This document shows positions 10,912-14,040 of a DNA stretch of 32,000 bases, piece after piece. The position numbers and the translations under genes were made by a program. Where the stretch lies: positions 1,200,001-1,232,000 of the forward strand of contig NC_009073.1 of the NCBI RefSeq assembly GCF_000015805.1, read 5' to 3'. The DNA is from Pyrobaculum calidifontis JCM 11548 (GTDB lineage Archaea; Thermoproteota; Thermoprotei; Thermoproteales; Thermoproteaceae). The notes beneath the pieces are model-generated. The model was given only the letters and a program-made list of their open reading frames with translations. It searched no databases and was not told the DNA's origin. The first letter of the stretch is position 1. Each line of letters begins with the position of its first letter.

Positions 10912-11910
10912 GTGGATGAGGTTTTTGAGTTGGTGGAGGTTTTGAGGTGGGCGGGGGAGGCGGCTGGTGAGGTTTCGCCGCCTGGGGGTGTGGGGGAGTG
11001 GGAGGGGGGTGAGTGGGGTGTGGTGGAGGAGTGTGGGTACTACGAGGTGGGGTTTGAGTGGGGGCCTCCTCCTGGGGATGTGCATGGGCTTGATAGCCAC
11101 ACTGTGGTGGTGGATTTTGGTGGGGTTTCTGTCATCGTGGCGACTGGGGCGCTGGTGGGGAGGGTTTCGGGGGTTGTGCCTGGCCTGCCGGCGAGGTGGC
11201 TTGGGGTTAGGTTTAACTTTTTGCTGGAGGGGGGCCTGCCTGTGGGTTCTCGGCTTTATTGGCGCTCCGCATTTTTGGACAGGGCTTTTGACGCGTCTTT
11301 TGACTTGGAGGCGGCGCGTGACGAGGTTAGGCTTCACGTGGAGGGGGTGCTGGCGGGGGCTTGGGATGGTGGTGGGACCCTCATTGTGGACGGCCCGGTG
11401 TTTAGGGCGGCGGCTGCGGCGGAGAGGGGTGGGGTCTATGGGGAGCTGTACCGGCGGTTTATTGAGGAGAGGGTGAGGGCTTTTGGGGGGAGGAGGGTTG
11501 TGGGGGTGGTGAAGAGGCTTGACCGCTCTTATTACCTGGCGAGGTGCGTGGGGGTGGGGGCTAACGACGAGGTGGCGGCTTTGAGGCTTTTGGAGGGGAG
11601 GGTGGGGTTTGTGGGGCCTGTCGTTGTTCGGGTTGGGGGGTTTGTGAAGTGGATGTACTACGTGGCTGTGCCTAGTGGGCGGGGGGTTAGGGTGGTGAGG
11701 GTGGAGGCGCTTGAGGAGGGGCTGGCGGCTGAGGCGGCTCGGTGGGTTGCGTCGCTGTGTGACCCGTTTGGGGTGCCGGTGCCCGTGGCGGTGGCGGACA
11801 AGATCGCTAGGCGCCTGAACGCGTCTATTGTCAAAATGATCTACGCGGCGTCCCCCGTGGAGCCGACGTATAGGGGGCTTGAGGCTGTGCTTGAGGCGTT
11901 TAGGTCGTGA
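10912..11910 (+). CDS. NurA-like nuclease domain protein
   Basis: HTVVVDFGG (first acidic motif), TLIVDGPVF (DGS/DGP-type motif) and [14 protein letters not shown] (K-x-S motif) resemble NurA (PF09376). A HerA-like ATPase lies nearby. GTG start; the stop overlaps the next ORF (GTGA at 11907-11910). Confidence 0.6.
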
Positions 11911-12473
11911 CTTACCTCCTGGCGGCGGCTGGGGTCTCTATCTTGAGGTTTGTGAAGGTGACTGGGCCGGCGGGTAGGGTGGACGTCTCCTCCTGTCCCA
12001 GGCCGTGGGAGGTGCCGGAGCTCCACATGGCGGCGGCGCTTGGGGGAGTGGAGCTGGAGCTGGCGGCGTCGGACACGGCGGAGGGGGTCGCGGCGGCTAA
12101 GGCGGTGCTTCTCTGCGCTGAGCGGCTTGGGGTGGCTAGGCCGGTGGGCTTCTTCGTGGTGAAGAGGTTTAGGCCGGGGTCTCTGGAGGGGGCGGCGGAT
12201 CTCTTGGACAAGGCGGTGGTGCGTCTCCTGCGGAGGGGCGGCTACGTGGGGCTGACCTCTGGCGCCAAGCCGCAGGTCTTCTACCTGCTCCTCGCGGCGT
12301 GGATTGCCGGCGCCCAGCCCGTCTACGTGGACGTGGGGGGCGGAGTCCACCTCCTGCCTAGGGTTGAGGTGAGGGTGGATTCCCTCCCGAGGGAGCTCCT
12401 ATACGCTGGGGATAGGCCGAGGGGGTGGGTGTTGGAGCTTATCCGAAGTGGGCGGCTCTCTTCTTTACCTTGA
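11907..12473 (+). CDS. CARF/Csa3-N-terminal-like Rossmann-type domain protein with no obvious HTH
   Basis: 188 aa, translationally coupled to the NurA-like [37 protein letters not shown] matches the CARF motif-II pattern x-x-[ST]-x3-[RK] followed by a helix and a beta-strand. Alternating beta/alpha propensity is seen upstream ([22 protein letters not shown]). Confidence 0.45.
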
Positions 12474-14040
12474 CGTAGACGGGTACTCTGTAGGCGTAGC
12501 TCCAGAGGTATGCCACTCCCCTCTCTGCGAGGGCTATGAACCTCCTCTCTGAGGGGGGCACGGAGAGCTTTTCTAGGACCTTCGTGTCGCTTCTCAGCAC
12601 GGCCTTGGTGTTGGCGAGTTGGAGGACTACGTCGTTTAAGTCGTCGGGGGTGTGGGTGGCGAAGACCACAGCCACCCCTCTCGCCCTGCCGAGCCTGGTG
12701 AGCTTGGTCAAGAGGGCCTCTAGGAAGGCTTGCTCGTCTTCGCTCCTGGTCTGGGGGAAGAAGAGGTGCGCCTCGTCTACCAGAACGGCGGTTATGGGCC
12801 TCGCCAGTTGGTAGACTGCGTCTAGCACCCTGTACACCACCAGCCTCTGCTGGCCCACGCCCAGGGCCGAGATGTCCACCACGGCGTAGCCGGAGAGGGC
12901 CTCCCGGTAGTCCGGCTCTACGACTCTGGCCTCTCCCCGCACGTCCACTAGCCCCGTCTCTATGACTGAGAGGAGTGCCCTCACTATGTTTTCCATGGTG
13001 CTGACGTGGAGTCCCAGGGACGCGCCGATGGCCTCGTACATTATGGCCGGCCGCCTCCCCGCCTCGCCGGTGGGGCTTGTGAGAAATTGGAAGAGGCCCG
13101 CCGCGTCTCTTGGTGCCCCCTTCCTCCAAGCCTCTTGGAGGACCCTCTTGTAGAACATCTTGGCCTGTTGGGAGAGTATGCTCACTGCCCTGGGGAGGTG
13201 GCGGAGTATGTCTCTGCTCTCTAGGGCCCAGGGGTAGACCCGCATCCTGGCCCTCCCGGCGGGGGACTCCACTTCCACCTCCGCCCTTGTGAAGACGTCG
13301 CCTCTCTTGTACAGCCTGGCCTTGTACCTGGCCCTCCTCCCCCACGCCGCCTTTGCCACAGCTCTCCTCACCACCGCCCGGGGGCCCCTCCTCATGAGCC
13401 TGGCCGTGGTGGGCAGTATAACGTTCACTGTGAGGCCGTTGTAGGCCAGGTGGTAGAAGTGGCCCACTGCGTCTAGCGCCACGACGCGGTGCCCCGCCTG
13501 GGCCAGCTGGAGCGCCAGCTCTTTCACGAAGACGGTCTTCCCGCTGCCGGTTGTCCCCACCACGAGGAGGTGGTGCCTCAACGCGTCTAGGGGCAGTCTG
13601 ACAACCTCCCCCGGCACCTCCTCTCCCGTGGGGAGTGCCAGGGCCCCCAGCTCGACGCCGTCGCGGGGGAGGCCGAGCATTTCCCCCACCTCGCCTGGCT
13701 TGGGCCTCCTCACTGGGGCGTGGACTGGGACGGGGGTCGCCGGGGCGCCGCAGGCGGAGCCGCCGCACTCCGCCACCAGCTCCAGCACGGCGATCTTTGG
13801 CCCCAGCCTGAGGCCAACCGCCAGCTCCTGCTCGGGGGAGAGCACGGGGGTGTTGGCCACGGCGTAGAGGTCGGCCATCTTTACCTCGGCCACTCTCCCC
13901 AGCCACCTCCTCCCCTTGTCCTCCGCCACGAGGAAGGCCCCCACCCCCACGTCGCAGCTCAAGAGGACGCTCACCTTCGCCTCCTCGAGCGACACCACCG
14001 TGGGAAACTGCCTAGACACAAACCCACACTCCCCAACCAC
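12439..14040 (-). CDS. herA: HerA/FtsK-superfamily ATPase (HerA-like helicase)
   Basis: Walker A is [12 protein letters not shown] and Walker B is [38 protein letters not shown] is typical of HerA. The N-terminus is barrel-like ([21 protein letters not shown]). The start is placed at GTG 14040, about 25 nt downstream of the TATA-like GTTTTAAAT. The ORF-track start at 14217 is probably an over-extension. Confidence 0.8.

Follow-up and report, generated by a model that had tools for sequence, protein, structure and literature searches.

Clusters of nurA, csm6 and herA linked to CRISPR were described across Pyrobaculum in 2012 by Bernick et al., who called csm6 (APE2256) "deeply associated" with the CRISPR-linked nurA-herA pair and reported that nurA and csm6 appear to be co-transcribed (PMC3396285). 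According to the same study, nurA-herA pairs number at least three in most Pyrobaculum species, the CRISPR-linked one among them forms a separate clade, and P. calidifontis encodes a further pair, Pcal_0358/0359 (PMC3396285). "Cas HerA" and "Cas NurA" entered the catalogue of Vestergaard et al. 2014, and in Shah et al. 2018 NurA and HerA appear as clusters 57/58 ("Type III coevolved"), scored as having evolved together with the interference modules of type III systems. In PADLOC, each of the three proteins has a model of its own, built from the catalogues. A copy of the cluster lies at positions 10912-14040 of the 32,000-nucleotide (nt) stretch of Pyrobaculum calidifontis JCM 11548 analysed here (contig NC_009073.1, positions 1,200,001 to 1,232,000; referred to as the window), and each of its three proteins matched its PADLOC model over the full length. 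It is the CRISPR-associated nurA-csm6-herA cluster of Thermoproteaceae, in which csm6 is a stand-alone CARF gene of the family CARF_m4.

For P. calidifontis, Table A1 of Bernick et al. lists cmr4, cmr1, cmr6, the array Crispr6 (+) at 1203351-1205855, and then Pcal_1294 nurA (+), Pcal_1295 csm6 (+) and Pcal_1296 herA (-) (PMC3396285). Adding 1,200,000 to the array of the window (3351-5855) gives the coordinates of Crispr6 exactly, and the strand, the gene order and the gene strands agree as well. Since array coordinates, strand and gene order coincide with Table A1, the trio is very probably Pcal_1294-1296. The genomic feature has therefore been known since 2012, very probably to the exact locus, and is not a discovery. 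An earlier note on this DNA had taken a HerA/NurA pair with a small sensor-like subunit for a different configuration, which it is not: the cluster has been in print since 2012 (PMC3396285), reappeared in the catalogues of 2014 and 2018, and has a PADLOC model for every component. Compared with the cluster of Bernick et al., the window shows no structural difference, as it holds the same three families in the order nurA (+), csm6 (+), herA (-), placed after cmr1-cmr6 and the array. It represents the one-CARF form, like P. neutrophilum, whereas in P. oguniense and several metagenome-assembled genomes (MAGs) a second CARF gene, of the CARF7 type, adjoins herA. From the comparison of related loci we conclude that a dedicated CARF lineage is co-inherited with the NurA/HerA pair in every architecture found, with CARF_m4 as its reduced form. 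The reading we favour, tentatively and with less than even confidence, is that the trio may be an effector gated by cyclic tetra-adenylate (cA4), in which a CARF dimer would control NurA-HerA.

Several better-characterised systems resemble the cluster in part. The canonical HerA-NurA complexes of Sulfolobus solfataricus, Pyrococcus furiosus and Thermococcus kodakarensis share the NurA fold and the HerA Walker A/B core with the window proteins, and by analogy the window NurA-HerA presumably forms a dimer-on-hexamer nuclease-translocase like the canonical complex. While canonical HerA-NurA is encoded with mre11-rad50, the window sequences are very divergent, a CARF gene is inserted, and the context is CRISPR; no Mre11 or Rad50 domain was found among the scanned window open reading frames (ORFs) of at least 150 amino acids (aa), which cover the plausible genes, as the earlier note had also remarked. 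The Sir2-HerA and DUF4297-HerA systems of bacterial anti-phage defence likewise combine a HerA-type ATPase with an effector enzyme, yet they have neither a CARF component nor CRISPR linkage, whereas the window HerA is partnered with NurA and scores 31 bits against the NCBIfam model of anti-phage-associated HerA (NF042943; cutoff 800). With Can1, Can2 and NucC, which are type III DNA effectors activated by cyclic oligoadenylate (cOA), the likeness lies in the proposed logic only, leading from a cOA sensor to DNA degradation. There, sensor and nuclease form one polypeptide or a homo-oligomer, whereas the window would have its sensor in a small protein of its own that controls an ATP-driven motor-nuclease. 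Finally, the Crn1 ring nucleases Sso2081, Sso1393, Sis0811 and Sis0455 (CARF7/CARF_m13) have the CARF fold and the Gly-x-Ser and Gly-x-Lys positions in common with the window protein, and stand-alone CARF7 and CARF_m13 proteins are the known Crn1 ring-nuclease family (PMC12409355). The window protein, in contrast, belongs to CARF_m4, is shorter and is always embedded in nurA-herA, and its Lys and Ser positions vary among orthologues.

Genes of the module and the identity of NurA and HerA

The nurA gene (10912-11910, +) starts with GTG and encodes the CRISPR-associated NurA nuclease (Cas-NurA; 332 aa). It is followed by the CARF_m4 gene (11907-12473, +; 188 aa), and herA (12439-14040, -), encoding the CRISPR-associated HerA ATPase/translocase (Cas-HerA; 533 aa), converges on the two. 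Direct reading of the sequence confirmed that nurA and the CARF_m4 gene share the bases GTGA at 11907-11910, a 4-nt overlap, and the CARF_m4 gene is translationally coupled to nurA. The herA stop codon (12439-12441) and the end of the CARF_m4 ORF at 12473 together give a convergent 3' overlap of 35 nt (12439-12473), so that both overlaps described in the earlier note stand. The last 11 codons of CARF_m4 and of herA are opposite strands of the same DNA. Because of the convergent overlap, there is no room for a terminator between the two genes, and antisense or transcriptional interference is possible.

A TATA-like box, TTTATATT, is located at 10887-10894 (+), 25 nt upstream of the nurA GTG, and another, TTTTAAAT, at 14066-14059 (-), preceding the herA start at GTG 14040 by 26 nt. 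Given what is generally known of the spacing between box and start in archaeal promoters and leaderless genes, both boxes are putative promoters, that of nurA being of the leaderless type. The maximal herA ORF extends over 12439-14217 (-). The homologue searches brought up no P. calidifontis protein, and their sole 100% match was the Logan contig ERR9765744. An automatic gene call on an identical contig starts herA at GTG 14052, giving 537 aa. GTG 14040 is the better choice because of the TATA-like box 26 nt upstream and because the resulting N-terminus agrees with homologues starting MTCGF or MDCGF.

All 12 Pyrobaculum/Thermoproteus loci that a look-up or a genome scan returned (L001-L012, P. 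neutrophilum and P. oguniense among them) hold the trio together, always with the 4-nt overlap between nurA and the CARF gene. The genome-contig scan with the NurA alignment yielded 5 loci only, its derived peptide patterns being strict. The 35-nt overlap between the CARF gene and herA is identical in every convergent locus (the window, L002-L007 and L010-L012). Co-conservation of the three genes in relatives, on which the earlier note had let its proposal depend, was thus tested and held. Since more than 10 independent loci have the trio with its 4-nt overlap, and the convergent ones the 35-nt overlap as well, the three ORFs are genuine genes and not products of chance.

The assignment of NurA and HerA made in the earlier note holds by Pfam and PADLOC, for NurA also by fold and for HerA by its Walker motifs. 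NurA matches Pfam PF09376 (6e-22) and the PADLOC model PDLC01056, "NurA, Type III coevolved" (1.4e-104, with residues 1-323 aligned to positions 1-303 of the 310 in the model), and its identity to nurA in P. neutrophilum, in P. oguniense and in related MAGs is 56-70%. No solved NurA was matched among Protein Data Bank (PDB) sequences by phmmer or by profile, and a fold search was needed. An AlphaFold2 model with a predicted local distance difference test score (pLDDT) of 87 returned only NurA proteins as top Foldseek matches: 2YGK (S. solfataricus), 9X1M (T. kodakarensis), 7F6D (Deinococcus radiodurans), 1ZUP/TM1739 and 3TAL (P. furiosus). The model thus depicts a NurA with a predicted RNase-H-like fold, and one that can be called very divergent because the PDB sequence searches matched nothing. 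Four acidic residues, D61, E138, D160 and D296, are invariant across 13 family members and, from the RNase-H-like pattern, are inferred to be a candidate catalytic set.

HerA passes the Pfam cutoffs for HerA_C and DUF87, with HAS-barrel sub-threshold (16.9 bits vs 25.2), and has a Walker A motif GTTGSGKT at residue 162 and a Walker B motif AVLVDE at residue 418. It matches PADLOC PDLC01055, "HerA, Type III coevolved", at 7.3e-171 over the full length, while the generic HerA models of PADLOC reach 1e-11 or weaker, and it is 66-79% identical to herA of related loci. The NCBIfam equivalogs NF040819 and NF040937 have cutoffs of 970 and 800, of which the window HerA reaches 36.5 and 35.6 bits, and none of the NCBIfam NurA models matches the window NurA. 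With the HerA equivalogs at about 36 bits and the "Type III coevolved" models at 1.4e-104 and 7.3e-171, the pair is very probably distinct from a housekeeping resection pair, as the earlier note had supposed.

A CARF lineage tied to NurA and HerA

The earlier note had suspected a CARF-like sensor in the 188-aa protein, and the fold check it had proposed bears this out. The protein passes Pfam Cas_APE2256 (PF09651) narrowly, at 25.4 bits against a cutoff of 24.8, and matches the PADLOC model CARF_m4--CARF at 3.8e-84 over its full length and CARF7 at 2.3e-11 with partial coverage; around the G-x-K motif it also aligns with Sis0811 and Sso1393, both ring nucleases. An AlphaFold2 model built from an alignment of 20 sequences has a pLDDT of 91 and a predicted template modelling score of 0.87. 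Foldseek returned 26 PDB matches at E<=0.001, and all 26 are CARF proteins (Sis0811, Sso1393, Cami1, Csm6, Csa3, Cam1, Sso2081), with the nearest solved structures being cA4 binders. The family CARF_m4 is reportedly defined in the CARF classification of Makarova et al. 2020.

The motifs of the window protein are G9-V-S11, E38, D56-T57 and G119-A-K121 (T117-S-G119-A-K121). G9 and G119 do not vary in either CARF_m4 or CARF7, and G9/S11 and G119/K121 correspond to G9/S11/G104/K106 of Sso2081. The four CARF motifs are kept in the window protein, and 42 positions are invariant. Yet the position of Lys121 holds lysine in only six of 10 orthologues, with asparagine in three (P. oguniense, L008 and P0017) and arginine in one (P. 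neutrophilum), and Ser11 is replaced by threonine in one of the 10 and missing in another (P. neutrophilum). These exchanges, at the lysine in four orthologues and at the serine in two, argue at the sequence level that ring-nuclease catalysis is not the conserved role of the family. Two cysteines, C30 and C70, are invariant in all CARF_m4 orthologues, C70 also in CARF7, and a disulfide between them is conceivable in such hyperthermophiles.

CARF_m4 is a tiny family. An exhaustive HMMER search found four representatives at E<=1e-10 among 1.8 billion proteins, and a word-based homologue search, giving four relatives, agrees with it. A further HMMER match, the 2040-aa P0020, was rejected as spurious, being a repeat protein. 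The only relatives outside CARF_m4 from the exhaustive search, P0021 and P0022, resemble in sequence the CARF proteins attached to herA in more distant modules. Compared with its CARF7 relatives, CARF_m4 is without the helical insert after strand 1 and without most of the C-terminal domain, keeping about 35 residues past the CARF core, modelled as one short helix pair.

Three gene orders were seen among the close relatives. In P. oguniense, L008 and L019, the genes run co-directionally as nurA-CARF_m4-CARF7-herA; in L002, L006 and L011, nurA-CARF_m4 converges with CARF7-herA; and in the window and P. neutrophilum, the convergent arrangement is without the CARF7 gene. The second CARF gene overlaps the start of herA (L002 12136-12858, L011 12133-12849, P. 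oguniense L009 9537-10307, L008 5825-6580) and encodes about 238-256 aa with the motifs GVSLLxN and ATGGFKPES. Together with the generic Crn1-like genes beside csx1 in L017 and L028, it forms one group. P. aerophilum likewise has a CARF7-type gene next to herA according to Table A1 of Bernick et al. (PMC3396285). In the window, tblastn with this second CARF of L002, L004 and L011 matched CARF_m4 itself and nothing else. L019 comes, like the more distant modules, from a separate metagenome scan; its NurA is 65% identical, and its co-directional trio has a herA split into 8289-9146 and 9224-9895, which is either a frameshift/pseudogene or an assembly error.

In the distant modules, with NurA 40-46% identical, nurA is directly followed by herA, and a CARF7 gene of 253-260 aa converges on herA in all nine loci in which the 3' flank of herA is visible. 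L028 has two CARF7 genes: the one adjacent to csx1 is 57-58% identical to the generic Crn1-like group, and a different one stands beside herA. Against the profile of the herA-attached CARF7 proteins, CARF_m4 scores 40-65 bits, compared with 12-23 bits against the generic Crn1-like group, in which the second CARF of the Pyrobaculum operons is included. By these similarities, the CARF lineage attached to herA is a different one from the generic, Crn1-like gene. Its full-length CARF7 relatives have a C-terminal domain of about 80 aa that aligns with Sis0811, a ring nuclease bearing a helix-turn-helix (HTH). Csx1, a CARF-HEPN protein, was also found in related loci.

Surroundings of the module

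The window opens with the 3' end of cmr1, a type III-B RAMP gene (1-347, +) cut by the window edge, with frame 1 open from base 1. By tblastn, the fragment has 42-50% identity to L011 and to P. oguniense L009, where it matches the RAMP gene upstream of cmr6 in its C-terminal part. It is followed by cmr6, also type III-B (348-1070, +; Pfam RAMPs 5.8e-10, PADLOC Cmr6 1.8e-33), and by an AAA_21/ABC-type ATPase gene at the end of the cmr operon (1095-1919, +; Pfam AAA_21 7.5e-13), which has a homologue at the same place after cmr6 in L011 and L009. What the earlier note had called a Cmr remnant is thus the end of an intact operon, with the C-terminus of cmr1 in bases 1-345 and then an intact cmr6.

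In the CRISPR array (3351-5855, +), the 24-nt repeat GAATCTCAAGAAGAGGATTGAAAG occurs 38 times against a chance expectation of 0, and the array ends 5.06 kb before nurA, in agreement with the distance of about 5 kb given earlier. Because the repeat terminates in ATTGAAAG, the usual 8-nt handle of CRISPR RNA, the + strand is the one on which the array is read, and the leader lies towards cmr. The penultimate repeat (5761-5784) is the sole variant, with G changed to T at repeat position 15.

Between array and nurA are two ORFs on the minus strand, one of 313 aa without a family match (6792-7733) and a P-loop ORF of 959 aa divergent from nurA (7967-10846). The G+C content at 6000-11000 is 0.33-0.53, against 0.63-0.68 in the nurA-herA module. 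The stretch looks like an inserted island, owing to its low G+C and the absence of both ORFs from all related loci. Both genes were rejected as parts of the module, since they are missing from all related loci except the identical contig. The STAND NTPase of the earlier note therefore survives in part: a divergent P-loop gene is present, whereas its matches to STAND-type families are sub-threshold and the gene does not belong to the module.

Directly upstream of herA is an ORF of 223 aa without a family match (14234-14905, -), which sits where other loci hold the CARF7 gene and contains two 21-nt tandem repeats (14574-14644) encoding a repetitive, coiled-coil-like stretch. The neighbouring Arch_ATPase gene of the earlier note was recovered as ATPase_2 at 15083-16177 (-; 1.8e-30). 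Farther along are a PaREP1-family gene (17856-18443), consistent with a Pyrobaculum-type genome, and an ORF with DUF3782 and a PD-(D/E)XK_10 nuclease domain (20445-21482, +) in which a 96-nt unit is repeated in frame, amounting to 2.4 copies (20780-21014). L011, too, has an ORF with this pair of domains near the module (614-1534). The end of the window is occupied by a fatty-acid beta-oxidation cluster (23052-31951) with enoyl-CoA hydratase, esterase, acyl-CoA dehydrogenases, thiolase with an OB-fold partner, and dehydrogenases.

Possible roles of the cluster

In the cA4-gated effector that we tentatively favour, the neighbouring Cmr complex would bind viral RNA, upon which Cas10 would make cA4. 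A CARF_m4 dimer could then bind cA4 and, as a separate regulatory subunit, switch on or license the NurA-HerA nuclease-translocase, which would processively degrade DNA from ends or nicks. The genomic setting suits such signalling, as directly upstream of the module stand a type III-B cmr operon and an array of 38 repeats, Csx1 is present in related loci, and nurA and csm6 are reported to be transcribed together. The link to CRISPR and type III genes drawn in the earlier note is likewise upheld by the array and cmr1/cmr6 in the window and by the matches to the "Type III coevolved" models. In addition, neither NurA nor HerA has a sensor domain of its own, which counts for the CARF protein as the sensor, as do its retained CARF motifs, the cA4 binders among its nearest solved structures and the exchanges at the ring-nuclease lysine and serine. 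A broader form of the proposal, more doubtful though still conceivable, is that CARF_m4 and its herA-attached CARF7 ancestors may be dedicated cA4 sensors acting in trans, with sensor, motor and nuclease on separate polypeptides. To our knowledge, no characterised CARF effector is built this way, each of them carrying its sensor in fusion with an effector domain.

A number of points weigh against such a gated effector. Fusions of CARF with NurA or HerA were looked for, and none was found. The variable Lys and Ser motifs could equally mean weakened ligand binding, and a transcription-factor or ring-nuclease ancestry of the CARF lineage is possible because the C-terminal domain of the herA-attached CARF7 proteins aligns with the HTH-bearing Sis0811. 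The gene for Cas10 lies outside the window. A literature search found no functional study, biochemical or genetic, of any cluster member or of gating by cyclic adenylates, and a 2026 paper cites the cluster merely as an association suggesting an antiviral function. Type III systems do not require the cluster either, since P. islandicum has a type III-A system only and yet is without it (PMC3396285).

An unlikely alternative is that the small CARF protein is a plain ring nuclease, a Crn1-type off-switch degrading cA4, whose place between nurA and herA would reflect co-regulation. Its best matches in sequence and structure are indeed the ring nucleases Sis0811 and Sso1393, the window protein retains G9-V-S11 and G119-A-K121, residues needed in Sso2081, and stand-alone CARF7 proteins are known as Crn1. 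Yet the family is CARF_m4, neither CARF7 nor CARF_m13, and the lysine is replaced in P. oguniense, L008, P0017 and P. neutrophilum, the last of which is also missing Ser11. Moreover, a generic off-switch would not need to be co-inherited with nurA and herA in every architecture, and L028 has a separate Crn1-like gene beside csx1 besides the one adjacent to herA.

It is rather improbable that the module serves CRISPR adaptation or array repair, as proposed by Bernick et al., with NurA-HerA resection supplying prespacers or post-insertion repair and the CARF protein as an accessory (PMC3396285). The canonical pair is an end-resection machine, the cluster always adjoins an array, and in P. neutrophilum it directly follows csa1-cas1-cas2-cas4, while P. 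islandicum, which is without cas1/cas2, is also without the cluster (PMC3396285). Later surveys, however, place NurA and HerA among the genes that evolve together with the interference modules of type III systems (Shah et al. 2018), and cyclic-oligoadenylate signalling, to which the dedicated CARF partner points, belongs to the interference stage.

There is little to recommend the view that the CARF protein is a ligand-responsive, Csa3-like transcription regulator of nurA/herA, or else a degenerate structural subunit without ligand binding. Csa3 is among the structural matches, and Csa3a activates nurA/herA in Sulfolobus according to the literature; the herA-attached CARF7 relatives keep their C-terminal domain of about 80 aa, and the ligand-site lysine varies. 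Against a regulator, the roughly 35 residues past the CARF core are too few for a winged helix, and a gene that is translationally coupled within an enzyme operon more typically encodes a subunit than a regulator, while the four CARF motifs and the 42 invariant positions speak against decay. Finally, that the pair is the housekeeping HerA-NurA for double-strand-break resection is scarcely credible: although the two protein families are the same, mre11 and rad50 are not among the scanned ORFs, the HerA equivalogs stay near 36 bits against 800-970 with no NCBIfam NurA model matching, solved NurA structures are not matched at the sequence level even with a profile, the best matches are to "Type III coevolved" models, and among the three or more nurA-herA pairs of Pyrobaculum species this one represents the clade linked to CRISPR (PMC3396285).

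The hypothesis of a cA4-gated NurA-HerA effector is sharpened by the comparative points, namely a CARF lineage co-inherited with the pair, its distinctness from the generic Crn1-like gene, and relaxed ring-nuclease residues. If true, it would add a new effector class, a multi-subunit ancillary effector, to type III CRISPR immunity, and it would explain why Thermoproteales retain an extra NurA-HerA pair.

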